A stretch of 64,000 nt of DNA from Antedon mediterranea (GCF_964355755.1 NC_092672.1:17063237-17127236), one strand, 5' to 3'. Counted from the stretch's first letter, positions 17,574 to 61,307 are shown. The notes: generated by a model not told the origin, from the sequence alone. Translations and numbers: made by a program.

Positions 17574-19238
17574 ATGCACGGTCAAAAAAAGATTTTATCG
17601 TTTGGCAAATTGGATAATACAATCGATCCGTTGGTGACTGTGAACAGCCGAGGTTCTTTTGGCGTTGTCCATTCGATAGAGTCTGGTTTAGTTGAAAAAT
17701 TACATTGTGGCAATCAGAATAGCAGCGATGCACGAGTACGTTTAACATTCAACAAGGAAACTTTCATTTTAGCTTACGCAAACTACTTTGACAGATTGAA
17801 ACGGTACACGCCGCAGATATGTCAGGCAGTCGTCGATTCAGGAGTGACTCAATGTCTGCGCATGACAAACGAAGGTTTTGACTTGTTTACAATACGGATG
17901 ACAATGCAAATGTTGCCGTGCGTGCTTACACTTTATCGACATGTTGGCGAGGGGCTTGCTTTTCTGGACAAGATAGGAGTCGCACATAACGACATAACCA
18001 TCAGGAATGTGACGTACAACAGACGGCAGGGCCGATTCAAGTTTATTGATTTTGGTTCGGCCGAAGTACATCGTCGAAAAATGATCGAATTTGAATCGAG
18101 CAAAAAGGTCGGCTTATTTGGAGGTGTTGGATGCGTTCACGGAGAATCGATAGCCTCCGCGTACATACCATCGGACATGCCGATCTACACAATGGACGTT
18201 GACACTGGATTCGGAGGAGTGCGCAGCGTAGAAAGACTAGTGTCCATAGGGTATCGAGATATCAGTCACGTGATGACAGACAGAGTGGTGAAACTGCTGA
18301 ATAGTGAATCGGACGTGTTTTCTGCCGCAATGACCGTGGTGACGGCCACAATGTACAACGAATGCCAACAATTTGATGAGGTGCAATACACAGACATGAA
18401 AAGACTTGGAGACACTGGGCAAAAGTCGAAGATATTACACACTCTTGTCGGCCTCTGCAGACAATTTGTGAAGATAAGAGGTGGTATGACAAAATTCGAA
18501 ACGGCTTACTGGTACACGTACGTAAACTCTGACATGAACATATGTAAGGCTCTGGAATGCCAGCCGTCCGATGAACTGCCTATACTGGATCGATATCGAA
18601 GTGTTCTCGGTGAACGTTTTATCGATCGGCTTGTTGAAAATTTAAATCCAATACCGGAGAACAGAAAGTCGTTTCTAGTGTTGAAGAACGACGTTCAATC
18701 ACAGCGCACCAACATCGAATCTATGGACATGTTATCGGTGAAGATGGTTGCGCAGAATGTCGTTCATTTGTTTTACAGAGACTTTCAAACGCTAGTTGGA
18801 GATGTGGTGTTTCAAGAAAGTGGCGCAAACATAACAGTTGATCATATGAACCTGTTGATTGACAACGCAGACGGCACGTTAGCGGTCGTGTTTGTTCGAT
18901 CAGCATTGAATCTGTATCGAAAACCTTCGTCATCGTCGTCGTCGTCATCGTCGTCGTCGGTAGAGTTTAGAGTTTACAACGACAGAGAACGTCGATTCTT
19001 GGTGTCATTGTTTCCAACGCATCGACAAACGACAGACGGTCATTTAGTTGTCGAGATTGAAAAGGATTCGTCAATCATTCTTCCTCTTGGAGTGAAGCAG
19101 CAAACGGTCACCGATAGGGTTTTCAAAGAGATGTTAGGAAACAAAATAAAATCGATACACACGCCTATACGAGAAAACTCATGGTGCACGTCCAAGTCGA
19201 ATCTACGTGTAAAACAGCTGCCATCAATTTCTTCCTAG
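17574..19238 (+). CDS. Ser/Thr protein kinase, viral type (paralogue 2)
   Basis: GSFGVV, HNDITIRN, FIDFGSA and SDVFSA. Shares RDISHVM.DR and LNP.PE.R with ORF 10952-12592. Confidence 0.9.
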   Translation: MHGQKKILSFGKLDNTIDPLVTVNSRGSFGVVHSIESGLVEKLHCGNQNSSDARVRLTFNKETFILAYANYFDRLKRYTPQICQAVVDSGVTQCLRMTNEGFDLFTIRMTMQMLPCVLTLYRHVGEGLAFLDKIGVAHNDITIRNVTYNRRQGRFKFIDFGSAEVHRRKMIEFESSKKVGLFGGVGCVHGESIASAYIPSDMPIYTMDVDTGFGGVRSVERLVSIGYRDISHVMTDRVVKLLNSESDVFSAAMTVVTATMYNECQQFDEVQYTDMKRLGDTGQKSKILHTLVGLCRQFVKIRGGMTKFETAYWYTYVNSDMNICKALECQPSDELPILDRYRSVLGERFIDRLVENLNPIPENRKSFLVLKNDVQSQRTNIESMDMLSVKMVAQNVVHLFYRDFQTLVGDVVFQESGANITVDHMNLLIDNADGTLAVVFVRSALNLYRKPSSSSSSSSSSSVEFRVYNDRERRFLVSLFPTHRQTTDGHLVVEIEKDSSIILPLGVKQQTVTDRVFKEMLGNKIKSIHTPIRENSWCTSKSNLRVKQLPSISS

Positions 19239-19888
19239 TGAACGTGGTGTCGTCGCAGAACATTGCTCATCGATACGCGTACGACAAACGTGAAAAGACA
19301 CATTCCATACACATGCGAGGAACCAAATTACAAGACGACATGGTAGAATTTCAATCGCCGTTATGTCGAGGATCCACCGCCTTGTCGTTTGTATCCACCG
19401 GCTCGACAAACATTACGACGAGAGGAAATTTCAACGTACGAACAAAAACGTCATTGAATTATCAATTTCATCAGACACTGTTATGGGGAAAGTTCAAGAG
19501 CGTTCCGATGCACACGTCTACAAATAACCTGAATCACGCGGGAAGAATTTATGGAATTCGAGACAATCCATCGGTTGTTGTGGAACGCCTCAAGTTGAAC
19601 GAATCTCAGTCGGTGGACAGTAACGATCGTTTCCCATCCATCAAGTTTACAATCTCAAACGATCGCAAGGACGGAGGAGACGGACGCAATCGAAAGTTTC
19701 AACTGTTTTCACCGTCACTCCGTTGCAACACGCAATTTCAAACGGTCGATTCACTCAAACGTACCGGCCGCATATTTCTCGATACAATTCTAAGACACAT
19801 CAACGATTTCGATTCAGTTGACTGTCGACTGTCTATGGAACATGAACTGCAGTACGGTAAACCGTTGACTGATCAGAAACTGTTGTAA
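19181..19888 (+). CDS. Possible divergent TATA-binding-protein (TBP)-fold protein
   Basis: NVVSSQNI, TALSFVSTGSTNIT and DRFPSIKFTI...FQLF resemble TBP NIVSTVNL, TALIFSSGKMVCT and ELFPGLIYRM...LLIF, in the same order. By-eye match only. Confidence 0.4.
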   Translation: MVHVQVESTCKTAAINFFLVNVVSSQNIAHRYAYDKREKTHSIHMRGTKLQDDMVEFQSPLCRGSTALSFVSTGSTNITTRGNFNVRTKTSLNYQFHQTLLWGKFKSVPMHTSTNNLNHAGRIYGIRDNPSVVVERLKLNESQSVDSNDRFPSIKFTISNDRKDGGDGRNRKFQLFSPSLRCNTQFQTVDSLKRTGRIFLDTILRHINDFDSVDCRLSMEHELQYGKPLTDQKLL

Positions 19889-20392
19889 ATCAATGTAGCA
19901 TTCCATTACATGTGCCGTAAACGATCTGGCAGCAAACGAAAACGCTATCAATTGAAATGACTCAAGCCGTTGTTGTTGTTGTTGGTGGTGGTGGTGGTGG
20001 TGGTGGTGGTGGTGGAAAATGTGTCATGAACGACGTATTCATTATACAACTCGGATCATCGCTACTCTACAAGAGAAGAATGCAAAAACAAAATAAAAAC
20101 AAAAAAATCATATGATGATATTTATGATGAAGTAGAAAAAAAAAATTAGGAAAAAAAATGAACTTGGAAGCATGTATTCAGATGCCAGTGCATGACCTGT
20201 ATCGTGTATTGGAACAACTTCACCAAAAAACTGACGTAAACAAACAATTAGTTTGTAGAGTAGAAGAGATTTTAGCAGAATACAAACACGAAAAACATTT
20301 ACTTTCAACATTTACGAAAATGTGTATAAGAAATAAATAATAAATGTTTATGTAATACAGTGTTTTTTTGTTTGTTTGTTGTTGTGTGTATT

Positions 20393-21529: not shown

Positions 21530-21600
21530 GAATAAAAAACCACAAAGAAAAAAAAACAAACAAGTTGTTTATTTATTATTGAATTTTATTTATTTTTTTT

Positions 21601-23847: not shown

Positions 23848-24657
23848 TTAGTGCACGGGACGTAGAAAGAGTTTCTTACAAAGACCGTGCTGGGTTGCGG
23901 CCACCTGATTGCTTTTAATTGTTCCGTTGGCAAGAGTCAACATGGACATTAAATCGTGTTTTGTTGAATACGAATGAAACACTTTACAGAGTGACTGAAT
24001 AAACTTATACTGACGGTCCAGGGTCGAATACGTAATGGATACGTCACAGCCTCTCGGCAACGATTGAGGCTGCACGACAATTGTTTCGTCTACTTGACAA
24101 GCTTGTATGAAAAAGAGTTTAGGTTTTCCGTTCAACGTTTCACATTTTTCGAAACAGTCGACGATTTCAGTGACATTGACAGTACCGTGAGTGAGAATGC
24201 ACACGGCAATGCAATCTAGTCTAGAGTGATCGTATTCACTTAGACGTGTGAGCAACGTCTTCGTTTCTATGGACGTCAGATTGTGATTAACAGACAGTTG
24301 GAAGCCGAGATAATTGAAGACATTTTCAAGCGCTGCACAATCATCATCATCATCATCATCATCATCATAATTGTTGATGATTACTGTGAAACCGCGCGGA
24401 TTTGAAGTCATCTTGTACTCGTTCAATCCGCCATCATGGATAGAATCGATAAATGCATTGTACGCAAAACTACCTCGTGTTTCGATGTCGATCAACAATC
24501 GTTCACGAGCGTTCGTGTTAGATAAAATTGCATCCATCTTCTTGGTCGAATACACGCCTTTCTGTACCAATTTCTCCATTACTTCTCTAATGCTGTTTAT
24601 GTTACGAATAAAATAGAGACGATTTTGACGCAATTTTTTCTTGTCTGATCTGTTCAT
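23848..24657 (-). CDS. CARD-containing caspase-like protein (caspase-2/9-like architecture)
   Basis: N-terminal CARD-like segment (LRQNRLYFI...LLIDIETRGSFAYNAFIDSI), then YKMTSNPRGFTVIINN, CIAVCILTHG (His), GKPKLFFIQACQ (Cys) and LCKKLFL. Confidence 0.9.
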   Translation of the reverse strand: MNRSDKKKLRQNRLYFIRNINSIREVMEKLVQKGVYSTKKMDAILSNTNARERLLIDIETRGSFAYNAFIDSIHDGGLNEYKMTSNPRGFTVIINNYDDDDDDDDDCAALENVFNYLGFQLSVNHNLTSIETKTLLTRLSEYDHSRLDCIAVCILTHGTVNVTEIVDCFEKCETLNGKPKLFFIQACQVDETIVVQPQSLPRGCDVSITYSTLDRQYKFIQSLCKVFHSYSTKHDLMSMLTLANGTIKSNQVAATQHGLCKKLFLRPVH

Positions 24658-26434: not shown

Positions 26435-26785
26435 ATGAATCGATGTACGCAAATGGATGTATGCAGATTCTTTTCGGAAAAGTACAGAGTAGATGACTTT
26501 GTAGAGAACGATGTGAACGGAGTCGTGTCTATGGCCACCGATCGATACGTTAAGAGTGTTGACAGTCTATGCGCTTCTTTGAAGAACTTGAAATGTCAGC
26601 GAAATGCAACAGTTAAAGTTACATCACCAGCACCACCATCATCATCATCATCATCGTTGAATGTTGATCATCTTGCATCACCACCGCCACTGGCTGAGAT
26701 GCAGATACCGTATTGGTTCGATGAACTGGAGCGTTCGATGAAAGGAAAACGAACGTGGTTCAGTGTCAACTATCGCATTATGTAA
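26435..26785 (+). CDS. Small hypothetical protein
   Basis: ATG at 26435, divergent from the 26400 gene. It fills the gap before the protease gene. Confidence 0.45.
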   Translation: MNRCTQMDVCRFFSEKYRVDDFVENDVNGVVSMATDRYVKSVDSLCASLKNLKCQRNATVKVTSPAPPSSSSSSLNVDHLASPPPLAEMQIPYWFDELERSMKGKRTWFSVNYRIM

Positions 26786-28110
26786 TTCTGATGAGTAGCT
26801 TGCCAATAATTGAATCCGTCGTCTTTGAACGCAAACGATGCATCCACTGTCTGTGATGGTGGTGGTGGTGGTGGTGGAGGTGGGGCTAGCAGTTGTTTGC
26901 CCAACATTTCTGTAAGTTTCTCGAGACTGTTTATACGTTTTTCAAATTCATCGTCTGTGGTGGTGGCTGCTGCTGCGGCGGCGGCGGCGGTGGCTTTAAG
27001 TTTTTTCTCTGGCGGTTCATTCGTTTCGTGTTTACGTTTTCTATTACCATGATCGTTCATTGTATTATTTTTGATTCGTTGTTCGACTGTTTTGAAGTAA
27101 TCGTTGCAGACGTTAATCGTATTCTCGTTGTTTTTTGTCAACAATCGCTTGTGAATGTCTAGTATTTCGCTCAATGATGTAGCGTTTGTAACGTTCACTT
27201 GATCTTCCATTTTTGGAAAACGGCGCTTGAGCAAATCACCCAATTCGGTCTTGTTTGCCATGTTCGAGGTGGCATCATCGATGAGATCATTGGCGGCCTT
27301 AAACGAGGCGGCAACGTCAATACCAGGATCCGTGTCCCATCGATCCGTCACCGCTTTAAAGTCTTTCATTTGCTTATTGTATTCAGGTCCGAGTCTTCCC
27401 TCCATCGTTTCTCTCAAACGGAGTATAAAGTCACCGAATTGTTCACGCAAGAGATCCACCTCTTCCTTGATTTCTTGTTTGTCTTTTACGTTGCTCTCTT
27501 CCTTGTCTTTCAACAGCGAGAGTAGAGCATCGAGTTTTTCCGGTGGTAACGTGTTCGCCATATCTTTCACTACTTCCAATTCCGCCAGCAAATTTTCTTC
27601 CTTCTTCACAGACATTGCACCTTCTTTTTCCTCTTTTACTTTGCGACGACGTTTATATCCGAATCTTTTTTCTGCTGTACGTCTGGCGCTGCGCTCGTCA
27701 CTACAGAACACGGCCACTGTACCTTTTCGTTGACCAGTCTCCACGAGAGAAACTTCAACGCATTTAGTGTGATCGGCGCGTCTGTAGCTGAGTGACAGAC
27801 AGTTTAGATGCTGTGAGAATGGACTGCGTAAAAACGGTTCATTCGTGATCTCTATAAGAACGGCCACTGCACCTGTTCCTTCTTCGTGTGCGTCTGGATG
27901 TGTATTGTCTCGCCACCAATCTAGAACCGTACCGATGCCTCCCGATGAATGTATTCCAACACCGTTCTTACGTGCTTTCACGTGTTTCCATCGAACCGGC
28001 AATCCGATGAGTTTCCATCGATCTATCACGTCAGGCGTTACATCATATTCTTTGTCAACGACCACCGCTGTCACTTCTGTCACCACGTATCCGACAACGA
28101 AACGTTTCAT
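26770..28110 (-). CDS. Capsid maturation protease (assemblin/HK97 prohead protease family) fused to a scaffold protein
   Basis: LPVRWKH (His), IGTVLDWW, LSLSY (Ser) and EVSLVETGQRKGT (oxyanion loop), followed by a helical scaffold with a VDA/S site 22 aa from the C-terminus. Confidence 0.85.
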   Translation of the reverse strand: MKRFVVGYVVTEVTAVVVDKEYDVTPDVIDRWKLIGLPVRWKHVKARKNGVGIHSSGGIGTVLDWWRDNTHPDAHEEGTGAVAVLIEITNEPFLRSPFSQHLNCLSLSYRRADHTKCVEVSLVETGQRKGTVAVFCSDERSARRTAEKRFGYKRRRKVKEEKEGAMSVKKEENLLAELEVVKDMANTLPPEKLDALLSLLKDKEESNVKDKQEIKEEVDLLREQFGDFILRLRETMEGRLGPEYNKQMKDFKAVTDRWDTDPGIDVAASFKAANDLIDDATSNMANKTELGDLLKRRFPKMEDQVNVTNATSLSEILDIHKRLLTKNNENTINVCNDYFKTVEQRIKNNTMNDHGNRKRKHETNEPPEKKLKATAAAAAAAATTTDDEFEKRINSLEKLTEMLGKQLLAPPPPPPPPPSQTVDASFAFKDDGFNYWQATHQNYIMR

Positions 28111-28714
28111 ACCACAATCGGTTCTTCTTTTTAGTATTTCTCTTCTTCTTATTCTTCTTCTTCTTCTTCTTCTTCTCCTTGCTCTTAATGTAGCGCATCG
28201 CTAAGGTGTATCTTTCTGTTTTCAAATGTGCCAAATCTGTTTTATCATCTTCCTCTATTATAACGTTTTGAACGGTTAACGTTTTCTCTTTCAGATCGAC
28301 GACAGCTTCCATGTCGAAAGACATGCACAACAGTTGAACGGTGAACCAGTCTATGTGTTTGACGTCCAGAAACACCGCCACGTCATCATCGATCACGACC
28401 GATGAACAAAACGGAGCTGTGCGTTTTGCCACCAATGCTATGCTCGGATGTGTTTTGTTTCCAAACGATTGATGATCGTAGGGTATACCCAGCTTTGCTA
28501 TTGCACAGTCGCATTGACTTTCACAAGAGAATCGTACCACACCTACAAGACGAGAACAGTCGATGCAACAATGCGTGCCATCTGGACACGATGCAAGTAG
28601 AATTCTCAAATCAAGACTCGATATATTACTTTGCATAACGTTCACTCTCATCGTTTTTGTTTTTGTTTTTGCAAATTTTCTGAATCTCGTAAATATGAAT
28701 TCTCTAGTGTACAA
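28055..28714 (-). CDS. Hypothetical protein with a Lys-rich C-terminus
   Basis: 219-aa ORF. The true start may be the downstream MRVNVM. Confidence 0.55.
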   Translation of the reverse strand: MYTREFIFTRFRKFAKTKTKTMRVNVMQSNISSLDLRILLASCPDGTHCCIDCSRLVGVVRFSCESQCDCAIAKLGIPYDHQSFGNKTHPSIALVAKRTAPFCSSVVIDDDVAVFLDVKHIDWFTVQLLCMSFDMEAVVDLKEKTLTVQNVIIEEDDKTDLAHLKTERYTLAMRYIKSKEKKKKKKKNKKKRNTKKKNRLWYETFRCRIRGDRSDSGGR

Positions 28715-29341: not shown

Positions 29342-32300
29342 TTAAGATATGATTTTTGGAGTAAACGACGACGGTAGTTGAGCTTCATGATTATCCGATA
29401 TCTTATTCTCTGTGGCGAGTTTAGCAATAAACAAATCAACATCTTCGGTGACATCTTCAGACGTGTCCGAGTACCAGTTTACTAGACCGAGCTCGTACGG
29501 TTTGTTGTTGGCGTTAGTTCTCGAGCAATTTATACTCATATCCTTTTGTTTGTACAATTTCTTCACAGAGTCCTTTAATCGATCTAAATCCTGTTGGCAC
29601 GTTACGGCAACATGATGTCCAGTTTTTGCATTGAACACGTCGTCATCATAATCGTCAACGTCTCCCTCGAAATTTGCTTGAACAAGTTTCATTCTAATCA
29701 CGTTCAACGCGTCCGCATCGTGAATGGTGACACGACACGTGGGACATTCAACTCGGTTGGCTCTCGTGTCTTTGGCACGATTTCGTATCATCTCTCGAAT
29801 GCAGGACATGTGAAATATGTGCGCACCGTTCCAATCGACTGTGCTGCATGCTGTAAAGTCTCCTCCGCTTGCAATTGTAGCACAAGGCAAAGCTTCGAGA
29901 GAACGACATCCAAATTCGTACATGCATATGGCACAGGTTTCACGCTGTAATTCCACAACTTCTTTCGCGTACGACGAGGAGTTATCGTCAGATTCGTTGT
30001 ATTCCATGGTAATTGATAGCCGACCGGACGGTGGTATATCTACAATTGCTTGTCTGTCGGATGGTGTTTCGTAGGCATCCGACTCGTTCACCTCGACAAC
30101 TCTTCGGAAAGGATCGAAACGAGAGTACTTTCGTTTCGCATACAGTCTGTTGAGTTGACCGGATTGATTAGAGTTGAAGAATTTGAAGACATCGGCAAAT
30201 ATGGCCACAACAGCTTTTCGACGTTCATCTTCTTTGTCGAGTCGTGCAACGTTTTGCAATTGACCAAAGCAGTATTTGAAGGTGGCTCGTTGACCGGCGT
30301 CACTGAGTCGAAACTTTGTTCTTGTAAAATTCACTATATTGTTCATGGCGATGGCGGCGGTGGCTTGATCAAATTGTGAGTGTTTGTCCATGACACCGTC
30401 AACGATGTTTTTAATCTCTTTGAACGCGTCCAGTCTATGCACACGGATTTCGGTCGGTTTCAGGAGCACTAAACTATGAGACTCGTTATCGTCATCATCG
30501 TCGTCGTCGTTGCCACGACCTCTACGCAATTCGCAATAACGATGGTCTTCTTTTTCATCATCATCATCCTTGTCTTCTTCTTCTTCTTCTTCATCGCTGT
30601 TGTTGTGAACGGCATCGGTGGTGGCTTTCAGTCGTTCTGTAACGTTTCGAATTGCAATCTCACCTTCGGGGTCCAATTGACGACTTGATAATCTAACTGC
30701 GTTCAGCATTTGACGTCTGGCGCTGCTCTGTAATGCCTCGCCGTCGTATGCCAACGTTTTGTTGGTTAAGCTGCTCATGTCCACTCCGTCGTTATTCTCA
30801 ACCGTATGATTGAAATCGGTCTCGTTCATTCGCATTAGTTTCACCATCGGATTCTCGTCCACGGTTTTTTTCATGTTCAATATAAAGTTTGTGTCCGTTC
30901 TGTTCTCGTCGATTCTTCTTCGACTGATGGTTGTAGACGTGGCCATGATTGAGTTGTACCGATCTTCGTCAACGATAAATTGTTTGGCCTCTTGCATCGT
31001 TTCTAAACGCCATTGTTTCTGAGCACGGCACGCCTCGTCCAATACTTTCATTTTATTCCACATTTTCAATTCGTTTTCGATGATGTTCAATCGAAACAGA
31101 TTTTCAATGTGTATCTCACAGAATTCTTTTGATCGTTTCACGAAATCCGGATGAATTTCACCGGCTGATAAATCTTCCAGAAAGGGATACTGTGCAAGTA
31201 CTGCATGTTCGTTCACCAGCTCGTACCGTCTACTCGTGTCGGACGTGTCAATGTCGGTGGCTAATTTGATGTCGGCCGTCGTGTAAAGGTGTTCACGTTC
31301 CATGTGCTTGGTACGATTGTAGTCGTTTTTGAACCTATGATTGCACTTTCTGAGCCGACAACGCAGACGTAACATGACGAGCAGTTGTGAATCTTCGTCT
31401 ACGCCGGCTGCAATCACCGTTCGACGCTCGGGCGGTTGATCTTCTGCGCAAATTTCTTTCTCGAAAATTTCGGCACCGATTCTTACCAGCCGTGCTGATC
31501 TCTGATACCAGTCGTATTCTCTCAGATATCTCATGATACCACCACCACCACCACCACCACCACCGATTCCTAAACGTTTTAGCACCGTTCGAGTCAATGT
31601 ACTGAATTTCATGTTACCGTGCCCTTGATCTTCGAGCACCGAGTCTATTGTGGACATGAGGTTGTCGGAAATGAGAACAATGGCCTTTGGTTCGCTCTTG
31701 AAAATATGACATTTCATTGTGCAGCACAACCGCGCCAACATCAACACCGTCATCTGATTCATTCGAGCACTGGCCAGAGGAAACGCTTTGCCGTTCTTGA
31801 CCATGTACTCGTTGAGCATACGCCAGTATTGTTTGGCCATTCGAGTGGACGCGATGGCCACCGATTCAACACGGCCGAAAGCGGCTGCTGAACTGAATTT
31901 GTCTAAAGAACTTGGATCGTGTCCGACGTCCGATAGTTTTCCTCTCAGATTGGCCGCTTTCATCTTTGCTGTCGATCGTAGCGTGTACACGGTGTATCGC
32001 TGCTGATGTTCAGATACCAGTTTGAATAACGTGTCTGCGATTCCAGCACCAATTGGGCGATTTTTCGCCACACTCACCATTTGACTAATTGTGATACAGT
32101 CTTTTTCCAGCACGTGATCGAGTGAACGTATAAATTCGCGCATCGGCATCATTGTCTCCTCTTTAACTTTATCTTCTAGAATTGGCAATTCGGCTCTCTG
32201 ATCGTTGCCAACTCGGTACACTTTCAAATGTTTGTCGCTGATGGATGGATAACACGGTCCGTATCCACCGATAGACGGTCGCGCGACATCACCGTATCGT

Positions 32301-32371
32301 AATCGTGACGATTTCACGGCCAACGGATAGCCCGTCGCCTGTGTGAGATATCTTTTGTGTCCACCTGACAT
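29342..32371 (-). CDS. Large protein with a C2H2 zinc finger and a C-terminal RING-H2 finger (putative E3 ligase/regulator)
   Basis: CRLRKCNHRFKNDYNRTKHMEREH (C2H2) and CAIC...PC...HIFHMSCI...CPTCR (RING-H2). Confidence 0.8.
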   Translation of the reverse strand: MSGGHKRYLTQATGYPLAVKSSRLRYGDVARPSIGGYGPCYPSISDKHLKVYRVGNDQRAELPILEDKVKEETMMPMREFIRSLDHVLEKDCITISQMVSVAKNRPIGAGIADTLFKLVSEHQQRYTVYTLRSTAKMKAANLRGKLSDVGHDPSSLDKFSSAAAFGRVESVAIASTRMAKQYWRMLNEYMVKNGKAFPLASARMNQMTVLMLARLCCTMKCHIFKSEPKAIVLISDNLMSTIDSVLEDQGHGNMKFSTLTRTVLKRLGIGGGGGGGGGIMRYLREYDWYQRSARLVRIGAEIFEKEICAEDQPPERRTVIAAGVDEDSQLLVMLRLRCRLRKCNHRFKNDYNRTKHMEREHLYTTADIKLATDIDTSDTSRRYELVNEHAVLAQYPFLEDLSAGEIHPDFVKRSKEFCEIHIENLFRLNIIENELKMWNKMKVLDEACRAQKQWRLETMQEAKQFIVDEDRYNSIMATSTTISRRRIDENRTDTNFILNMKKTVDENPMVKLMRMNETDFNHTVENNDGVDMSSLTNKTLAYDGEALQSSARRQMLNAVRLSSRQLDPEGEIAIRNVTERLKATTDAVHNNSDEEEEEEDKDDDDEKEDHRYCELRRGRGNDDDDDDDNESHSLVLLKPTEIRVHRLDAFKEIKNIVDGVMDKHSQFDQATAAIAMNNIVNFTRTKFRLSDAGQRATFKYCFGQLQNVARLDKEDERRKAVVAIFADVFKFFNSNQSGQLNRLYAKRKYSRFDPFRRVVEVNESDAYETPSDRQAIVDIPPSGRLSITMEYNESDDNSSSYAKEVVELQRETCAICMYEFGCRSLEALPCATIASGGDFTACSTVDWNGAHIFHMSCIREMIRNRAKDTRANRVECPTCRVTIHDADALNVIRMKLVQANFEGDVDDYDDDVFNAKTGHHVAVTCQQDLDRLKDSVKKLYKQKDMSINCSRTNANNKPYELGLVNWYSDTSEDVTEDVDLFIAKLATENKISDNHEAQLPSSFTPKIIS

Positions 32372-32430: not shown

Positions 32431-33174
32431 CTATCGTCGAGTCATGTTTCTGTGCGTTCTTCCTCCTCCTCCTCCTCCTCCTCCTCTTCCGGTAGAACGT
32501 CTCTCGTCCGACACGTTAAGAAGACTCGAGTATTCGTAATCGTTTTCATCATCCATCGCTGTAGAATTTTTTGAATGCACGGTACTGGTGGAGCGCCAAT
32601 GATGATAAACGCCGTATATCATATGGCATACAGACGCTACGACGGTGAGTATGAGTAGAACGCGGTCGGTGGTTGGCGTGAATGAAGAGCTGCAGAAAGG
32701 TTCGTTCATGTATTGCGTTGTCAAGTAACAGTACGGTATACTGTACGCCAAAAGGCCAAGCAATACGGCAGCGATAACTGGTACGGTGTGCAGCACCATG
32801 CGTTCCCATACGGCCGGTTGTTTGTATCTGATCAAATGTTTCTCCAACGTGAAACGAGTCATGAGATAAAGAAAGTTTACGATGATCGTAAACACATCTG
32901 CTCCAACGGCGTACAAAAGTGGACGACTGACAAACACAAAATCAATCTGACCTGGATGTCGTTCAACTCGTTCACTTTCGTTCACAAGAAATATGGCAGA
33001 AATCAACACGCCCAACATGTAAAACAGTTTCTGAAGATGCAACACAAAATGATCGTGCCATGCTCGTATACCTTTCAGAGAGTATACCTCATGCATGGCA
33101 TCGGTCAAAACGCTTGGAATCTCGGCCAATGTATTTCCAAACGAACGAAGGCTAATTTCGTCTCCGTACCCCAT
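32431..33174 (-). CDS. Multi-pass membrane protein (about 4 TM)
   Basis: Four hydrophobic segments: LFYMLGVLISAIFLV, LLYAVGADVFTIIVNFLYL, VPVIAAVLLGLLAYSIPY and VLLILTVVASVCHMIYGV. Confidence 0.8.
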   Translation of the reverse strand: MGYGDEISLRSFGNTLAEIPSVLTDAMHEVYSLKGIRAWHDHFVLHLQKLFYMLGVLISAIFLVNESERVERHPGQIDFVFVSRPLLYAVGADVFTIIVNFLYLMTRFTLEKHLIRYKQPAVWERMVLHTVPVIAAVLLGLLAYSIPYCYLTTQYMNEPFCSSSFTPTTDRVLLILTVVASVCHMIYGVYHHWRSTSTVHSKNSTAMDDENDYEYSSLLNVSDERRSTGRGGGGGGGGRTHRNMTRR

Positions 33175-35337: not shown

Positions 35338-35371
<34 letters not shown>

Positions 35372-40954: not shown

Positions 40955-41831
40955 TTATATCTCGTTTGATAAATAATACACTCTATCGGTCGGTATGCCG
41001 TAATATTTAATGCTATGATAGTAGTGAACGGATACTATGGGCTTCATCGGTTGTTTGAATGCAACATTAACCATTCTACCGACAAACGCTAAACTAGACT
41101 TGTCTTTGACGACTGCCGTTACGTTTAAATGATGATGATGATGATGATGATGATTAGAGGAGATGCGAATAACCCGATGATCGTGGTACACGTGTGATTC
41201 GATGTTGACGTTACATTCGTCAACAAGCAATCGCATTTGCTCGCCATTGATTTTCCATTCAACTTTGGCTGTACTTGGTACACCGATGAGATACAGGATG
41301 TTTGACGTACCTGTGACGTTCCATTGTTCGCTGTAGGTGAGTAGCTGTACACTCGATATGTTCTCGATGGAAAGGCGCGATGGCATATTGTACGAAATGA
41401 TATCAATATGGTCAACAGTATGCCATAATACAGGCAATTTATATGCGCACAATTCAGTGGCGACAAAGGTCGGTGCATTGTCTTGTTTATGCAATTTTAA
41501 TTCTTTTGAGATGGTAAGATTTTTAGCGGAGAAGATTACTTGAAGAAACAAATAATCGGTCGTGACATCGTAAAATTCTTGATAGTTTGTGTTTACGCGG
41601 ACCGTAACCATTCTGCCTCGAGCGCAATGTCTAATCGTTAGTAAGTTATCGTTTACGAGTACTTTGTCATTTTCTTGTGTTGTAAAGTATTTTACAGTTA
41701 GATTGTACAGTTTTGCAATGACTGACTCGTAGTAAAAATTGAAAGTTACTGACTCTCCAAGTACCGGATGTAGACTAGACATTACAATCGAGCCTATCGT
41801 TGATGCGTCCCGATTGCATGGATGAGTCGCG

Positions 41832-41868
<37 letters not shown>

Positions 41869-46032: not shown

Positions 46033-47125
46033 GATGTCCAATCGAACAGAGTTGCGTGGCCTCTCATGTGACACAAAACGTCCTTTTTATAATATACAAC
46101 GGAAATTTTTACAACGAGAGCTGTTACCAAATGTGCTGTTTTCACGATACGTGTCGTCCGTCAACGCTCCAATGGGGTTGTATGGCCGAAATGAAATTGT
46201 TTACGCGGTAGAAAAACCATCCGATCGTGATGATGTACGTCTGAATATGCGATGGCCGGAAAATGCCATGGTTTTGGACGAACGAAACGCAGTTAGATGT
46301 AACGTTCGTCTTAAAGAAGCCGTCATGGATGGATGTCATGCTGTAGTTCGTATGGTCTCCGGCAACCGAGTTGCGTGGCGCATACTCGATCCTAAACTGC
46401 ACATAGCTTACGTTGGCGACTGCGATGAAAGAGGAGGAGGAGGAGGAGGAGGAGAAGCAGGAGAAGAAGAATATAATGGTGACGCATTTGAAGAAAAAGA
46501 AGAAGAAGAAAACCCATCATGGACTATACATCGTCGTCGTAGTCGTCGTTTTTATCGTGCTGGTGGTGATGGTGGTTGTGGTAGAATGTCGTATACAGAC
46601 TATGACTTTTCGTTAGAAAAATCTCTTTGCGAACATTTCGGTGAACGTTACTACGACAAAACACTCGATAAAATGTACGTGTCTGCAATTGCAATACGTA
46701 CAGGTGAACAGCCGGAAAAGTTGTTGAAAGAGATGACAAAGAAGCTGACAAAGTGTCGAGTGTTTCCTACGAGCGGTTGTTGGTTATCGACCAGTAAGAG
46801 TTTCTACAGAACGACGGCCACGTGGAAGTATGCCGGACTTAAACCAAAAGAGCTGTTTTCGCACGACGGGAAAAACAACGAACGCCACGTTGTACGACAC
46901 GATCCAATGAGATGCGAACTGTGCGTCGAAGAGCATTCGAGATGTTGCCGTCCGTCTCATCTATGTTATGGATCAACAAAGTCCAACGTGAAAGATATGC
47001 GTTTGCGCCAGGGTGTTGCCGACATAGTGCACGGTCTACGTGACGATGAAAACATAGACAAATTCCGAAATCTAGTCGATTCGTTTGCAACGCTCGTCAT
47101 ACGAGAAGAGAACACTTCACGATGA
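46031..47125 (+). CDS. HNH/His-Cys-box (His-Me finger) endonuclease
   Basis: GCWL...VVRH...C..C...CCRPSHLCYGSTKSNVKD matches the pattern H.C....C..P.HL..G+..+N..D. Confidence 0.75.
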   Translation: MMSNRTELRGLSCDTKRPFYNIQRKFLQRELLPNVLFSRYVSSVNAPMGLYGRNEIVYAVEKPSDRDDVRLNMRWPENAMVLDERNAVRCNVRLKEAVMDGCHAVVRMVSGNRVAWRILDPKLHIAYVGDCDERGGGGGGGEAGEEEYNGDAFEEKEEEENPSWTIHRRRSRRFYRAGGDGGCGRMSYTDYDFSLEKSLCEHFGERYYDKTLDKMYVSAIAIRTGEQPEKLLKEMTKKLTKCRVFPTSGCWLSTSKSFYRTTATWKYAGLKPKELFSHDGKNNERHVVRHDPMRCELCVEEHSRCCRPSHLCYGSTKSNVKDMRLRQGVADIVHGLRDDENIDKFRNLVDSFATLVIREENTSR

Positions 47126-47908
47126 TGACGCCAAAGACCGCCGTTGACCGTCTTCAATCTGATGATGATGATGATGATGATGTTGATGCTGCGTTTCACC
47201 GTTTCGACTAAGCAGAATCGCCACTCTATCGTCCACGACTCGAGAAGATTCTGATTCCGAGCACAGAGTTTCGGTGTCGAGAGGAAGTTTTACGTTCTGT
47301 GCCATCTCGTTGACTTTATCGTTGTAGATTGTGGCCAATGTCAACGTTTTCTTGTAATTCTCTTCGCTGACGTGAGGAGGTAGATTCAACAGTGTCGACT
47401 GTAAAGAATTGCTCAGACTGTGCGTGTCTATTTTGATTTTCATATCGTTCAGATTACCGTCCATCGAGTTTAGCATACTGAACATTTGCTCGTATTGTAT
47501 TTTTTTTCGCATTAATGTACGTATCTCAACCTTTACGGTTTCCTTGTCAAATTCATCTTCAGCACTAATGTCTTCGTCGTACATACGATTGCGTAGACAT
47601 ATCATTTCGGATTGAATCTTTTGCATACAGTCTTTGGTGTCTTGCTTTTTGGCGTCAAGCAATCGAACGTATCCTTCGAGACGACTGTGGAACTCTGTTA
47701 TCTTTTCACAAACTTTACTCGGATCTTGTACCTTATTCACCGCTGCTTCTTCGTTTTCATCATTATCATTTTCGTCTCCTAGCAATCGATATCGTCCACA
47801 GTTGCAAATCGTCGACATGATCCACGAGAACATTTTGAAAACGTTTCGTCTCTTTTCAGCGGTGGTGATGGTGGTGGTGGCGGTGATAGAAGGTCGAACG
47901 GTTGTCAT
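47117..47908 (-). CDS. Snf7/ESCRT-III (CHMP4/5)-like protein
   Basis: LMRKKIQYEQMFSMLNSMDGNLNDMKIKIDTHSLSNSL parallels CHMP4 ALKRKKRYEKQLAQIDGTLSTIEFQREALENANTN. It is preceded by the helix RLLDAKKQDTKDCMQKIQSE and a hydrophobic N-terminal segment FKMFSWIM. Confidence 0.6.
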   Translation of the reverse strand: MTTVRPSITATTTITTAEKRRNVFKMFSWIMSTICNCGRYRLLGDENDNDENEEAAVNKVQDPSKVCEKITEFHSRLEGYVRLLDAKKQDTKDCMQKIQSEMICLRNRMYDEDISAEDEFDKETVKVEIRTLMRKKIQYEQMFSMLNSMDGNLNDMKIKIDTHSLSNSLQSTLLNLPPHVSEENYKKTLTLATIYNDKVNEMAQNVKLPLDTETLCSESESSRVVDDRVAILLSRNGETQHQHHHHHHHQIEDGQRRSLASSS

Positions 47909-50082: not shown

Positions 50083-51582
50083 TTAAAACCCATATTTTTT
50101 TCGAAGTGAACCGTTGTTTCGTAGACGATAATCTATTCCGGAATCAGTGATGGTCATGTATTCGATAAAAAAGAACATTTTCCGCAAATGTCGATCCAAA
50201 CTCTCCAGGTCTTTAGCGTTCTTTTCCACTCGATCCTTCCATGACTTTGCCGTCATCTGAACAATGTCTTCTGCATAAGAAGCAATGTTCTCCTGAACGT
50301 ACCTGAACGGTATCAGAGAATCTTTGTATCGAAAACAGAACATGTTGTTGTATTGTGCCAACAAATTGTGCCACTTGGTCAATGTCGTATCATCTTCTCG
50401 ACAGAATGAATATATCGGTTTCACAACGTTCGACGATACTTCGATGAATGGAAATGCGTATCCTGACTCGAATATGTTAACTTGCGTCTTTACACCGACG
50501 CCAACGACATGCGTGTGAAAATCGGATCCTAGAAAGGAGGCTGCAATCAAAGTGTTGAGACTAGCGTATGGACAGTACAGCGTGTCTCTCGCCCATTTGC
50601 CTAGCCTGTAACACGAAGTGATCCTGGGCAGTTTGCGTACCAGTAGAGCGTCTGATTGAAGGGCGGTGAGCGTAAACAAACAGTCACTGTCACACGTTTC
50701 CATTAGAATGTTGGACGAAGGAATCTGTACGTTGAAGCGTAGAATATCATGAAATGTGCCAAACAGTATGTCTGATTCCGATGATACGTTTCGATCGGGC
50801 AGAAAACTCTCGAAATCACAGCACCACTTTTCCAGCGTTGACGAAAGGCATGTGGACAGACGACACCAGTCTCGTGTCGTGCTGTCATCAAAACCGGCTC
50901 CGACGACCGTGTAAACGGCGTATTCGCGGTCGTATTGTCGATCCTTTTCGAACGTTGATCGAAGAGCTTGAACGACACCCGATTTGTTTTCTCTGCTACT
51001 GATGAACGATTCTATACTGCCGATGTAACTGCCGTCTTCTTGTCGACACACAGACGTGCCCTTTTCAGCGGCAATCGCGCACAGATTCTCGTCTACACTA
51101 CCTAATTTGTTCACTTGGTTTTGAACTCCCTTTTTTTTAACGCTTCGTCTACGTTTCAATTCCACTGACTTTGCATACGGAGCTGCGCCGTCCACAAACA
51201 ACAGCAGTGCCTTCAGCGAAACATTATCACTTTTCCGTCGTTGCACTTTTAAAACGTCATCCGCGCATGCCAGTGCGTCTTTGAGAAATTCTGTTAGTAC
51301 ATCTTGAACGGTGAAATGTTGATACACGTTCACCACACCGTTGTCTGTATTGCGCCAATTCTTACTTTCCAGGTTTCCGATAACGCTCGAGTTTTCGATA
51401 CAGGATTGTAGGTCTGGAAAACATTTCTCAACACGAACTCCTATATTACGTTTAACGATCTTGTGAAATGTCTGCGTAGCGTCCACCATCACGGCCACAA
51501 TATCGTTACAGTTTTCACCAAACGATTGATTAATCTTAGCATTGCTGTCAATGACGTCAGAGAATTTTCCCTTGAGCCCCAT
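50083..51582 (-). CDS. PIN-like 5'-3' nuclease (FEN1/XPG/XRN superfamily)
   Basis: MGLKG N-terminus, VMVDA, FVDGAAPYAK..E..RR, ESDI, CDSD and FLGSDF...GVG provide the acidic active-site motifs. Confidence 0.85.
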   Translation of the reverse strand: MGLKGKFSDVIDSNAKINQSFGENCNDIVAVMVDATQTFHKIVKRNIGVRVEKCFPDLQSCIENSSVIGNLESKNWRNTDNGVVNVYQHFTVQDVLTEFLKDALACADDVLKVQRRKSDNVSLKALLLFVDGAAPYAKSVELKRRRSVKKKGVQNQVNKLGSVDENLCAIAAEKGTSVCRQEDGSYIGSIESFISSRENKSGVVQALRSTFEKDRQYDREYAVYTVVGAGFDDSTTRDWCRLSTCLSSTLEKWCCDFESFLPDRNVSSESDILFGTFHDILRFNVQIPSSNILMETCDSDCLFTLTALQSDALLVRKLPRITSCYRLGKWARDTLYCPYASLNTLIAASFLGSDFHTHVVGVGVKTQVNIFESGYAFPFIEVSSNVVKPIYSFCREDDTTLTKWHNLLAQYNNMFCFRYKDSLIPFRYVQENIASYAEDIVQMTAKSWKDRVEKNAKDLESLDRHLRKMFFFIEYMTITDSGIDYRLRNNGSLRKKYGF

Positions 51583-53282: not shown

Positions 53283-53990
53283 ATGGAGGGAAGACAATCC
53301 GTTACTCGCAGTGATCTGTACAGCGGCGACGACACCGAGTCGATCGGCTCCAGTGAAAAGAAGAAGGGTCGGTTGGCTGGCAGAATCACTACTCGTAGGT
53401 CCGATAGAAGCAAAGTTAGGAGTGACATCCATCATGATGATAGACGTAACGACAAGTTTTGCCTACTCCTCTGCGGCATCCAAATCGTGCTCATAATTCT
53501 CGTGTGCACGATTCACGTTCATCTGAAACGTGCCTATCGCTCGTTGGATGATCACAAATGTAGACTGAACTTTGGCGACGTTGTCGTCACCTCGGACACG
53601 GGATATCGAATCGTGTCGGACGAAGGGCAATCGCTTCTGATGCGCTCCATCGATCGAACGTGGATGCCTTCCGAACCATGTCGAGGATCCGAAGATGATC
53701 ATCAACAGTTCACGTGCATTTCTAAAATGTCATTGTACTCAACAAAAAACGCGTACGTGTTCACATTGTTCAACGACACAGATAGCGGTAATGTTATACT
53801 GGTGCAAGGACCCGGTTACGACGCTGACGACGACCAAGTACCCATCTACATGCGCACAGACTTGGACAGTGGCAAGATAAGCATTGGATATCCACCGGTG
53901 CCAAACGATTACGGACACAGGTTTTCAAACGATTCGATGATCTACGTTGACGGTCGTGTCGTGTCGCAGACAACGTCCAAGAATTTGTGA
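53283..53990 (+). CDS. Type II membrane protein
   Basis: Basic N-terminus, TM segment FCLLLCGIQIVLIILVCTI and a beta-rich ectodomain with sequons. Confidence 0.7.
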   Translation: MEGRQSVTRSDLYSGDDTESIGSSEKKKGRLAGRITTRRSDRSKVRSDIHHDDRRNDKFCLLLCGIQIVLIILVCTIHVHLKRAYRSLDDHKCRLNFGDVVVTSDTGYRIVSDEGQSLLMRSIDRTWMPSEPCRGSEDDHQQFTCISKMSLYSTKNAYVFTLFNDTDSGNVILVQGPGYDADDDQVPIYMRTDLDSGKISIGYPPVPNDYGHRFSNDSMIYVDGRVVSQTTSKNL

Positions 53991-54341
53991 GCACATTTCG
54001 ACGACCAACATTCCCTTCTCACATAACCTGAACGCAAGGTATATTGCAATTTCTGTCTGGATGAACGATGACATCGACCTGACATTTGGCAGAAACTTTC
54101 ATTGGTGTCAAAGAAGAAACGATTGCCTCGTCTCGTCGTTCGCGTTATTTCCATGCCGGTGACACGTTGCACGTCGTCCACAATATTTCTCAACTGCTCT
54201 TCGGACAAAACTTCTTCGGTGGTGGTTGTTGTTGTTGATACATCTTTCTTTGGCTTTTTTACCAAATGTGACAGATCGTATGGTGTTTGACAAACGCTGT
54301 CGGAGCAGTAGTGCGCCAATGCTCGACGAACATCGACGCCT

Positions 54342-54382
<41 letters not shown>

Positions 54383-55135
54383 TACACGACGCAAAAGTTT
54401 AATAGGTTTCGATGAGATTTTGTAACATCCCGGCAAACGCAACGATCTACCACCGGCGTAAATGGACAGATCGACGCATCTCATCTCCGGATAGACTTTG
54501 CACAAAGCTGTCATCATGGACGAGAGAACGTCAATGTTTTCAATCGGTCTCGGTAAACGTTGGTATACGTGTAAAGAAAACTTGTCGCTTCCTTGGCTCG
54601 AGTATACGTGTGGATTGTCGGGCAAATGGCCGAGCTCGGCCGAAAGTGCACGCTTGATGCTTTCGGCCGTTCTCAGGGCAGATTCATCGCTGCACTGAGG
54701 TCTGTTTGCATCGTCGATGTCGATCGGTATGTTGTGAATGTGGAGGTTTTCGTTAAACACTTCGCTGTACGACGACACGGAGCATGATTGAATACTACGC
54801 TCTAGTGCGGTCGGTGACGCAACCACAAAACTTCTACTGCCGCTGCCCGCTTGGCACATCTGAGATGCCAACACGGATATGCGTCTAGGTACATCGAGAG
54901 CGAAACAAGTCCACGCTCCAACGTCCCTACTGGCTGGAGGAGGTTGACACCGGGCGTACGTCTGTGCCACGGTATAGGCACGAGGAAGTTTAGCGTGACT
55001 GGCCAGCAGACCGACGGATGCGAATCGATCTGTGTTGTAATAGTTGACGATACGCTGTTGAATGCCGTTCTGATGAGTGAAGCGATCGACGATCGTATCA
55101 TCATCATCAGTGTCCTGGTAACAACTGTAGTCCAT
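53942..55135 (-). CDS. AEP-family primase (PrimPol/herpes UL52-like) with a C-terminal Zn finger
   Basis: PIDID (DxD), KFSLHVY (SxH), VDLSIY...SLRLPGCYK and the Zn finger FC....RCH...RECW..KC. Confidence 0.9.
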
Positions 55136-58275: not shown

Positions 58276-58352
58276 TCGATAGGTCCTTCATAGTGTTTTG
58301 CTTGACAAAAATAAAATATACATACTATATATGTGTGTGTGTGTGTGTGTGT

Positions 58353-59601: not shown

Positions 59602-60243
59602 TCACACCACCGTTGCTCCGTATTCGGCCATCAGTTGATCGCACGTGTCTAGTAATGGATCTTCAGGAAACTGCACCGGTTCAATTGCATGACAAACATT
59701 TGCTTCTATTTGATTGACGTCGGCACAGTCTGTTTCAAGATCACCATCAACATAATCCTGTCCGATCAATAGATTCAGCTTTCGTATGACTTCTGTAACG
59801 GTTTGTTTGTACGGTAAGTTTGCTCTTCTGGCCAACATTTGACGATCCGCTTGCTCCTTCATAAAGTCTTGTTTGTTGATTTCACATTGAATTTTTAAAA
59901 GTTTGATCATCTCGGTCGCCCCCTTGTATTTGGAACATAATTCCAAAGTTTCGGGCAGTTTCCTTCGCAACTGTTCATACTTCACAGTCATTTCAGCGAG
60001 TCTTGCCTTTAGGCTGTCTATCTCGTATCGTTGTGTCTCCTCCTTTACCACATCCCTATGCGCGTCCATGGCGGCATGTGTCAAGTCTTTGTACATGTTT
60101 TGCGGTAACGAGTTGGCGTACTTTTCGGCAGCGATTACTCTTCCTCTCAGTCGATCTTGTTCTTGTAACATACTCAACTTATCAACTTGCATAGCTTCAA
60201 GTTCCTGTTTCAATTCCGCAATCATATCCTTTGACTTTCCCAT
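59602..60243 (-). CDS. Coiled-coil protein with a NEMO/optineurin/ABIN UBAN-like motif
   Basis: LLKIQCEINKQDFMKEQADRQML parallels NEMO [22 protein letters not shown]. ATG at 60243. Confidence 0.7.
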   Translation of the reverse strand: MGKSKDMIAELKQELEAMQVDKLSMLQEQDRLRGRVIAAEKYANSLPQNMYKDLTHAAMDAHRDVVKEETQRYEIDSLKARLAEMTVKYEQLRRKLPETLELCSKYKGATEMIKLLKIQCEINKQDFMKEQADRQMLARRANLPYKQTVTEVIRKLNLLIGQDYVDGDLETDCADVNQIEANVCHAIEPVQFPEDPLLDTCDQLMAEYGATVV

Positions 60244-60320
60244 ACCGAACGAATCTGAATGATTTTTTTTTTTGCTCTGACACGTTATTATATAGTGTGT
60301 GTGTGTGTGTGTGTGTCGCG

Positions 60321-61307
60321 TCAAGAAAAGTGATACGGTCGAAAGTATCTGTTCATAAACAGTTCAATCTCGGGACTGCGAACGTTACCGTAGAAATCGG
60401 TAGCAAACTCTCCGATGGCTTTCACCATACACGGCGTCACACAACCGTTTCTCGATCGACAAACAAATCCCATAGACTTTAGTTGATTGGGAATATAATG
60501 ATCGTTGCTAAAAAACAGCGAAGGATATGGATAGTTAAGAGCGTCGGTTACTCCGGGTAGCATGCCTACGGCCAAGTACAGTTTAGTACCCGCTTTTGCA
60601 TTCAATCGACACGATTCGTGAACTCCAGACAGTGTTGTAATCATCTTACCGAAATGTTGCGTTGTTATGCACGGATACGATTCGTTCGTAAACCATTGAT
60701 TGCCACCGAAAGAAAGCTGATAGCCGATAGGCAGAAAGTAAGAGAGGAAATCTCTAGGAGTTTTCATGCGTGCCAGTACGGCTCCAAAGCTGTCGAATCC
60801 ACGTCGTTGACACACCGTTTTGATGTATTCGTTGTGCGGCACGTCGCGATCGAAACAGTCGTTGATGTCGAGTGTAACCTCTTCTTTGATGATGTTTTGG
60901 AGGTGAGGCAACGGCACCGTTGCCTTGTCCGTACTCGCTTTAAAACTGGGTTCGGGTAACGCGTAACAGTTTACAGGAGCCGGTGTTGCAGTAGACATTT
61001 TCCTTTGACCGTTGTAAAGAAACAGCATATCGCCTCGATTGAATTGAATGGATCTGTTGAAGAATTCGTGATACGTTGTTATGTCACGAACACCGTCCGT
61101 ATCCTTTTGTGCGTGAGTTGACGTTGGATACATAAAGTTTCTTCTATCGCCGAAATTTGGTATACGCGACGTACCGGCCGTCATGTCTGTCTCATCGAGT
61201 CTGTACTCGCCACGACGTTCTGTCGCTTTGATCGGTGAATTTGGCTGTATGCCCGTGTACCATCTAATACCATCACCGGCGGCGTAAGGATGGAATCGTG
61301 ATACCAT
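60321..61307 (-). CDS. Putative second capsid triplex protein
   Basis: About 330 aa with the pattern GDMLF...LQNII...FLPIG...G..ITT...GTKLYL...KAIG, reminiscent of triplex-like proteins. Weak by-eye call. Confidence 0.4.
   Translation of the reverse strand: MVSRFHPYAAGDGIRWYTGIQPNSPIKATERRGEYRLDETDMTAGTSRIPNFGDRRNFMYPTSTHAQKDTDGVRDITTYHEFFNRSIQFNRGDMLFLYNGQRKMSTATPAPVNCYALPEPSFKASTDKATVPLPHLQNIIKEEVTLDINDCFDRDVPHNEYIKTVCQRRGFDSFGAVLARMKTPRDFLSYFLPIGYQLSFGGNQWFTNESYPCITTQHFGKMITTLSGVHESCRLNAKAGTKLYLAVGMLPGVTDALNYPYPSLFFSNDHYIPNQLKSMGFVCRSRNGCVTPCMVKAIGEFATDFYGNVRSPEIELFMNRYFRPYHFS

Follow-up and report, generated by a model that had tools for sequence, protein, structure and literature searches.

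How herpesviruses emerged out of mirusvirus-like viruses of protists is still debated, and to our knowledge only one family of invertebrate herpesviruses has been described. The Malacoherpesviridae include OsHV-1, the abalone herpesvirus and the lancelet virus BelcheriHV-1, the last of which is integrated between repeats (PMC12373286). BIR genes typify the mollusc herpesviruses, and described invertebrate elements match the malacoherpesvirus family B DNA polymerase (PolB) at 1e-98 to 1e-172 (PMC5552708). In the Alloherpesviridae (SalHV-1, ictaviruses, batraviruses), SalHV-1 carries ORF25 (UL31-like), ORF24 (protease) and ORF23 (triplex 2), and PSI-BLAST matches within the family are far stronger than those reported here (PMC13030845). 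TBP-like proteins are standard in the beta- and gamma-herpesviruses of the Orthoherpesviridae (PMC4893493). In the Mirusviricota, TBP and Snf7 are among the core functions (PMC12768974), and the towers of the major capsid protein (MCP) are "substantially smaller" than those of herpesviruses (PMC10132985). Divergent herpes-like regions of invertebrates, which may or may not belong to the lineage of the present element, likewise contain a DNA polymerase and fall outside the named families; by PolB they are placed between Ortho- and Malacoherpesviridae.

The window (the whole stretch of 64,000 nucleotides analysed here, from Antedon mediterranea) contains about 55 kb of what we consider, with moderate confidence, to be a deep-branching virus of the Herpesvirales type. 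It would belong to none of the three families known so far, and its host is probably an animal, most likely an invertebrate.

Gene content of the element

The coordinates of the features are collected in Table 1. Coding density is 87% over positions 8459-64000, and all ORFs named in an earlier note on this DNA exist in the sequence. The ORF that is convergent with the MCP gene and overlaps its end is presumably a PD-(D/E)xK-like nuclease. Another ORF, which we take to be primase-like from its motifs, has no family match. Terminase, portal and helicase motifs were not found in the window, and none of the long frames contains the Walker A motif of a terminase; the genome continues past the window. 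Telomeric repeats were likewise not found there, and none of the 47 ORFs matched a transposase or integrase.

Table 1. Features of the window, with positions counted from its first nucleotide
Feature	Position	Strand	Basis
AT-rich repeats	1..8458	none	~950-bp tandem units to ~4.6 kb, then duplicated blocks
Protein kinase, paralogue 1	10952..12592	+	Pfam; 34% to 17574-19238
Coiled-coil ORF, weak EABR match	14582..15157	-	E=1.8e-4, below cut-off
IAP: three BIR, UBA (weak), RING	16315..17547	+	Pfam
Protein kinase, paralogue 2	17574..19238	+	Pfam
235-aa ORF, TBP-like by eye	19181..19888	+	Label from reading alone
Compact PolB, 747 aa	21601..23844	-	Pfam E=1.7e-20
CARD-caspase, HG and QAC catalytic motifs	23848..24657	-	Pfam and sequence
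Maturation protease with C-terminal scaffold-like region	26770..28110	-	Herpes_ORF28 below cut-off; His/Ser/Glu motifs
198-aa ORF (conserved Cys/His), immediately 5' of the protease	28055..28651	-	Same position in 3/3 loci
1009-aa ORF, weak RING match	29342..32371	-	Homologue in L002
Multi-pass membrane ORF	32431..33174	-	32% homologue directly after MCP in L002
PD-(D/E)xK-like nuclease by motif	33332..34123	+	29% to same-position ORF in L001
MCP, predicted HK97 floor and herpes-type tower (~residues 431-794)	33992..37261	-	Predicted fold and homologues
Conserved ORF of 306 aa, immediately 5' of the MCP	37332..38252	-	30-31% identity, same position in L001 and L002
Several Ig domains, hydrophobic N-terminus	40955..43387	-	Pfam
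263-aa helical ORF, Snf7-like by eye	47117..47908	-	Conserved in L001, 28%
FEN1/XRN-like nuclease, weak	50083..51582	-	XRN_N E=0.0089
Primase-like ORF by motif reading only	53942..55135	-	Sequence
Coiled-coil ORF, weak NEMO CC2-LZ (UBAN) match	59602..60243	-	E=9.2e-7, below cut-off
328-aa ORF, second triplex candidate of the earlier note	60321..61307	-	Label unsupported by family match
622-aa ORF, weak BACK match, possible Kelch-type	61372..63240	+	E=0.023, below cut-off

The left end is rich in repeats, parts of which are found again within the gene array, and the exonuclease motifs of the polymerase are gone. Both could be signs of a decayed or chimeric assembly instead of a coherent virus. 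Such an explanation is extremely improbable and already largely refuted: the ORFs are long and dense, the left 20 kb is also covered by contigs from two other studies, whose runs carry two other organism labels (~98% identical for run X5), and the polymerase losses are common to a relative that is 47% identical. The contigs of runs X5 and X8 do not contain the EABR ORF (joint 14584-15567). Run X9 (share 0.14) gave uneven cover of the repeats and of part of one kinase.

The IAP, CARD-caspase and Ig genes, from which animal-type host control had been proposed, all score above the Pfam cut-offs, and the evidence supports a eukaryotic duplodnavirus with animal-type host-control genes and no close homologue among named viruses. 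The UBAN, EABR and BTB-Kelch genes listed alongside them fared less uniformly: weak NEMO CC2-LZ, EABR and BACK matches were obtained below the cut-offs, and neither BTB nor Kelch was matched in the window. A clear BTB-BACK-Kelch is carried by L001, one of two related loci (L001, L002). The coiled-coil ORF with the NEMO match found no counterpart among PDB sequences. The IAP and EABR ORFs sit to the left of position 19181, where the element of the earlier note began. From its gene content, the virus probably has an animal host. It resembles the Malacoherpesviridae in this likely invertebrate host and in its BIR/IAP and RING genes; the BIR-domain apoptosis inhibitor is not diagnostic of that family, as it is common to many invertebrate viruses.

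Major capsid protein

The predicted structure of the MCP confirms the HK97-like fold claimed earlier and contains, in addition, a herpes-type tower. Its mean pLDDT is 47.9, with 628 of the 1089 residues below 50. When this model was compared with 48,161 solved chains, only four reached Z>=8, all of them herpesvirus MCPs (Z 10.2-11.6), and phage HK97 capsids ranked next (Z 4-6.3). Floor and tower superpose on the MCPs of HHV-6B, HCMV, PRV, KSHV and HSV-1, and residues 431-794 align with the isolated HSV-1 upper domain over 300-302 residues (Z 10.8, rmsd 4.0). As in the Herpesvirales, the MCP is predicted to carry a large tower as an inserted domain. Two of the traits of the Duplodnaviria, an HK97-fold MCP and a capsid maturation protease, are present. 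In contrast to the Orthoherpesviridae, the protein is ~250-300 aa shorter, and no orthoherpesvirus family of Pfam was matched in the 47 ORFs.

A fold search of BFVD returned eight matches at E<=0.001: five named herpesvirus MCPs, Tupaiid herpesvirus T86 (not labelled as MCP) and two unnamed proteins. Alloherpesviruses, orthoherpesviruses and malacoherpesviruses are all represented, with identities of 8-12%; the top three are alloherpesviruses, whereas a malacoherpesvirus appears only at rank 8 (E=8.9e-4, 10% identity).

By sequence, the protein has few relatives. Among 1.84 billion proteins only 11 matches were found, 23-63% identical, and none of the 10 checked is named. Single and profile searches of PDB sequences gave no match, the Atlas gave no usable one, and no relatives were found in viral_contigs or genome_contigs. 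None of the 14 MCP family members matched a herpesvirus family of Pfam. One of the 14 matched Phage_capsid_4 (E=2.2e-4). In a quick tree of 14 rows, from which P0006, P0008 and P0010 were left out, the members are 20-62% identical among themselves; as it contains no outside reference, the tree is informative on diversity only. A predicted capsid protein of herpesvirus shape, combined with no sequence match to a named virus, makes a deep, unnamed herpesvirus lineage likely.

Mirusviruses also possess an HK97 MCP with a tower, and an animal-infecting or animal-associated mirusvirus would account for a possible TBP and Snf7; samples of shipworms, sponges and corals have yielded mirusvirus MCPs (PMC12768974), and some mirusvirus orders are without RNA polymerase. 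This origin is nevertheless very unlikely. Instead of the smaller mirusvirus tower, the model predicts a herpes-like one that aligns with the herpesvirus upper domain over 300 residues; the comparison is one-sided, as mirusvirus MCPs are in none of the fold matches listed and may be missing from the libraries. Metagenomes hold 21,560 mirusvirus MCPs for which mutual BLAST matches are typical (median 174 bits), against the 11 matches obtained here, and the MCP gene is a single uninterrupted ORF. Further differences are the animal-type genes and, in this incomplete genome, a window in which no viral RNA polymerase (DFDGD motif or Pfam match), heliorhodopsin or histone was seen.

Protease and conserved gene block

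The protease and its homologues at all three loci match Herpes_ORF28 of Pfam (E=5.8e-7, 4.1e-6 and 0.015; 15-29.5 bits, with the window's protease at E=5.8e-7 and 29.5 bits), each below the 40-bit cut-off, and the homologues keep the His and Ser motifs. Its profile found low-complexity noise alone among PDB sequences. The Ser-His-Glu pattern of the assemblin had been likened to HK97-type prohead proteases, as opposed to the His of orthoherpesvirus assemblins. The EVSL motif is indeed present in the window, and L001 also has Glu there, but the relative in L002 has His in its place (HVSL), so the pattern fails as a marker.

The order Cys/His ORF, protease, 300-aa ORF and MCP is kept in both related loci; in the window this four-gene block is split, with the protease pair 5.3 kb from the MCP. 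The 198-aa ORF retains C29, C47, H68 and H99 invariantly across the three loci and has no match among PDB sequences. By its position it is a candidate for a UL31-like nuclear egress protein. The 306-aa ORF is likely a triplex 2 candidate, as judged from gene position. It was one of two triplex-like ORFs of the earlier note; it exists, with its first ATG at 38252 and not 38261, but the label was not confirmed for either. The model of the 306-aa ORF is of low confidence (pLDDT 39.8), and fold searches with it returned blank. The 328-aa ORF has no Pfam or PHROG match, no match in L001 or L002 and no similarity to the 306-aa family in a profile comparison.

This alloherpesvirus-like neighbourhood (PMC13030845), the Herpes_ORF28 match, the alloherpesvirus MCPs at the top of the fold search and a BIR gene as in malacoherpesviruses would all suit a very divergent member of Alloherpesviridae or Malacoherpesviridae. 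We consider such membership quite unlikely, given the low MCP identity, the protease scores below the family cut-off and the far stronger malacoherpesvirus PolB matches of described invertebrate elements (PMC5552708). No named herpesvirus protein, malacoherpesvirus proteins included, is among the MCP or PolB matches, the 1.84-billion library being nameless and the PolB search restricted to 410-1308 aa. Core proteins of the Alloherpesviridae are recognisable by sequence at the family level, which does not appear to be the case here. The element also differs from that family in the MCP that joins the block in L001 and L002, and in its polymerase.

DNA polymerase

The compact PolB keeps the polymerase motifs and has lost all three exonuclease (proofreading) motifs, and the same three losses are found in its 47% identical relative, P0016. 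The other 37 of the 38 matches, obtained among proteins of 410-1308 aa, are 23-34% identical over part of the length; those that carry a name appear to be prokaryotic. None of the 56 PDB sequences matching at E<=0.1 is a herpesvirus polymerase, and no relatives were found in viral_contigs. As a counterpoint to the herpesvirus reading, sequence comparison thus shows a PolB with no apparent herpesvirus affinity.

TBP-like and Snf7-like ORFs

As the earlier note stated, mirusviruses do have TBP and Snf7 among their genes, but neither label was confirmed for the ORFs in question. The TBP-like ORF has no match in Pfam or the Atlas, only chance rows in a PDB sequence search and a blank plasmid tblastn. 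Against only seven archaeal TBPs, a weak reference that makes for weak tests, 111 and 39 of 1000 shuffles score at least as high as the ORF itself (global z=1.3), which is not significant. The Snf7-like ORF found no Snf7 match in Pfam, among PDB sequences or in one archaeal Snf7-like protein.

A lineage bridging Mirusviricota and Herpesvirales would have kept these mirusvirus core functions (PMC12768974) and gained a tower of herpesvirus size and an animal host. It could draw on the conservation of the Snf7-like ORF in L001, on the marginal profile of the TBP half-repeat (the 39 shuffles), on the matched tower span of ~365 aa versus ~560 aa in HSV-1 and on a PolB unlike those of herpesviruses. 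With both labels unsupported by searches, and with gene order and protease resembling alloherpesviruses, it is unlikely. The TBP-like ORF and the protease Glu are no mirusvirus mark, because TBP-like proteins are known from beta- and gamma-herpesviruses too and the Glu varies within the lineage.

Placement and proposed life cycle

Two placements had been offered earlier. The very divergent invertebrate herpesvirus fits best, since the predicted tower superposes on the HSV-1 upper domain and the 1089 aa of the MCP are near the 1188 aa of the abalone virus (1188-1224 aa in abalone and sturgeon viruses). A position between mirusviruses and herpesviruses was not demonstrated. In its boldest form, which we regard as doubtful, the element would lie near the mirusvirus-herpesvirus split and represent a fourth branch of animal duplodnaviruses, with the rank of a family or an order and a depth of at least 10 MCP lineages. 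It would then have an ESCRT-III (Snf7) of its own beside a mirusvirus-core TBP, together with an alloherpesvirus-like egress/protease/triplex block, an intermediate tower and a large genome copied by a PolB without proofreading.

For the preferred deep-branching herpesvirus, the following life cycle may be proposed. Capsids would be assembled in the nucleus around the protease-scaffold fusion and braced by triplexes, with the 306-aa ORF as putative triplex 2. Their exit may proceed via the 198-aa ORF as UL31-like egress protein. The DNA would be copied by the virus's own compact PolB without built-in proofreading, while the captured IAP, caspase, ubiquitin-adaptor-like and Ig genes may blunt apoptosis and innate signalling.

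Significance

The compact PolB without proofreading motifs, found also in one close relative, is a new observation; if conserved, such a polymerase would be an unusual enzyme among viruses with large DNA genomes. The lineage is invisible to sequence searches, and its divergent MCPs provide markers for its detection in animal genome data. It offers a testable additional branch at the root of the Herpesvirales.

Major capsid protein

The earlier note had read the 1089-aa ORF as an HK97-like major capsid protein (MCP). Pfam and PDB sequence searches with it returned no match. In a sequence search of 1.84 billion representatives it matched 11 proteins (23-63% identity); ten were looked up, none with a name. 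Later searches added four further relatives and one new locus, and pairwise identity of the relatives to the window protein is 20-62%. A second, distant clade (P0009, P0010, P0011 and P0013) lies at about 20% identity to the window, with full-length rows of 1169-1178 aa and 50% identity between P0009 and P0011; one of its members sits on a 51.8-kb contig.

The structure model, built from 16 input sequences, is weak overall (mean pLDDT 47.9), with values of 60-85 across much of residues 390-620. Foldseek against viral models gave eight matches at E<=0.001 and 8-12% identity. Five of these are herpes MCPs with a name, one belongs to Tupaiid herpesvirus T86 and the other two are unnamed. Lake sturgeon herpesvirus ranked first (1.2e-10); two ranid viruses came next, and abalone herpesvirus was last of the eight. 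Herpes capsids occupied every listed row of a PDB fold search. In a Foldseek-independent fold search, Z was at least 8 for 4 of 48,161 chains, all herpes MCPs, below which came phage capsids and encapsulins (Z 4-6.3). Superposition of residues 431-794 on the HSV-1 upper domain taken alone covers 300 residues (Z 10.8, rmsd 4.0). Together, the fold searches and this superposition confirm the HK97 fold on the predicted structure and bear out the original reading; the modelled tower is of the herpes kind, and its span is roughly two thirds of that in HSV-1.

Mirusvirus features

The proposal of a lineage bridging mirusviruses and herpesviruses drew on TBP-like and Snf7-like ORFs. PMC12768974 (excerpt) lists both among the mirusvirus core functions, in agreement with the note. 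In the window, the TBP-like ORF shows the expected spacing by eye. Its score was reached by 111/1000 and 39/1000 shuffles (two profiles, only 7 archaeal TBPs); the global z against archaeal TBPs was 1.3, and 1 of 33 control ORF slices scored higher. The Snf7-like ORF is conserved in the related viral contig L001 (28%), and sequence searches gave no Snf7 match. Since BcRF1/ORF24/UL87 are TBP-like (PMC4893493, excerpt), a TBP would not be diagnostic even if real. In PMC10132985 (excerpt) the towers of mirusviruses are said to be substantially smaller, and the comparison with the window tower uses that description; PMC12606086 (excerpt) adds nothing on tower size. The mirusvirus survey of eukaryote genomes left out Metazoa (PMC10827195, excerpt). 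A bridging lineage is possible but rather unlikely.

Protease and neighboring genes

The protease ORF and both its homologues match Pfam Herpes_ORF28 under the family cut-off. At what we take to be the third catalytic position, Glu is present in the window and L001, and His in L002, a second related contig. The Ser-His-Glu pattern noted earlier thus stands for the window but does not mark the lineage. His and Ser motifs precede a low-complexity tail, resembling the herpesvirus protease-scaffold layout (PMC11565193, PMC13030845, excerpts).

In the small Cys/His ORF, C29, C47, H68 and H99 are kept in 3/3 loci, a pattern compatible with the UL31 zinc site. The gene order in L001 and L002 is a 176-207-aa ORF, the protease, a ~300-aa ORF and the MCP; the window has the same four genes, split into two pairs 5.3 kb apart. 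Salmonid herpesvirus 1 has a UL31-like gene (ORF25), the protease (ORF24) and triplex 2 (ORF23) in direct succession; ictaviruses and batraviruses also keep the UL31-like position (PMC13030845, excerpt). By this gene position, the small Cys/His ORF is a candidate NEC1 and the 306-aa ORF a candidate triplex 2. The structure model of the 306-aa ORF is of very low confidence (pLDDT 39.8). Terminase, portal and helicase motifs were not found within the window, where the element is incomplete.

DNA polymerase

The least herpes-like feature found is the compact polymerase (PolB). It keeps DFKSYYP, YGDTDS and KKKRY. Both PolB and its closest relative P0016 (47%, 738 aa) lack the acidic residues at three exonuclease motifs, which three archaeal-type rows have. 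The remaining 37 of 38 matches are partial (23-34%), the nearest being prokaryote-type, and no herpes polymerase occurs among the 56 PDB sequences matched. Judged from its motifs, PolB is probably active but does not proofread, and it may be a second polymerase.

Element layout and host

From 8459 to the window end, coding density is 87%, with ORFs on both strands, and GC is 37-48% beyond 16 kb. The element is incomplete, since its last ORF continues past the window end. AT-rich sequence fills the left 8.4 kb, first as ~950-bp tandem units and then as duplicated blocks. Pieces of this stretch reappear among the genes, both at 13.2-14.1 kb and, in inverted orientation, at 28.9-29.3 kb (411 bp at 85%), and it is therefore not acceptable as clean host flank. 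No telomeric repeats or transposase were seen in the window. Read depth, taken for the element alone, is flat over coding parts (~40-50 in run X1); the copy may be integrated or free.

The capsid region is present in nine runs from 4 studies under 3 organism labels; one of the studies, P1, may be the source. Over window 1-20000, contigs of run X5 show ~2% differences (41 of 2678 and 55 of about 3100 letters); coverage by run X8 is thin. Contigs of both runs join 14584 to 15567, skipping 14585-15566 with the EABR coiled-coil ORF; accessory gene content thus differs among variants.

As for the claimed animal-type host-control genes, IAP, CARD-caspase and Ig exceed Pfam cut-offs, whereas UBAN, EABR and BACK match weakly. 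Given the established distribution of such domains, these genes point to an animal host. L001 carries a clear BTB-BACK-Kelch gene (1660-3414), which supports animal-type gene capture across the lineage.

Features of the window
Feature	Position	Strand	Length (aa)	Remark
AlkB-like 2OG-Fe(II) oxygenase ORF	4725-5399			amid left repeats (E=9e-4); 3' end duplicated at ~6962-7060
EABR ORF	14582-15157	-		
GT-AG intron candidate	15362-15263	-		may connect EABR stretch to ORF 15348-15722
TBP-like ORF	19181-19888	+		
PolB	21601-23844	-	747	
Protease	26770-28110	-	446	
Small Cys/His ORF	28055-28651	-	198	
MCP	33992-37261	-	1089	
Candidate triplex 2	37332-38252	-	306	
Paralogous ORFs	39272-40504, 43497-44756		~415	flank Ig gene; family unassigned; 19%, E=2.7e-8
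Cys/His ORF	46031-47125			C-terminal pattern resembles His-Me finger endonuclease; no match in family search
Snf7-like ORF	47117-47908	-		
Cys-rich ORF	51801-52727			CxxxxC...CxxC; no assigned family; possibly transcription factor
Zn-finger-like ORF	57006-58291			on 252-bp tandem repeat; 51-bp tandem array follows

Placement

Membership of the Alloherpesviridae was considered and fails at the sequence level. Elements of lancelet and Capitella are close to malacoherpesviruses (PMC12373286, PMC5552708, excerpts). No prior description of the present lineage was found in the literature searched. The window virus works like a herpesvirus and is probably a member of the Herpesvirales; the best reading, which we favor with some reserve, is a deep unnamed herpesvirus lineage.
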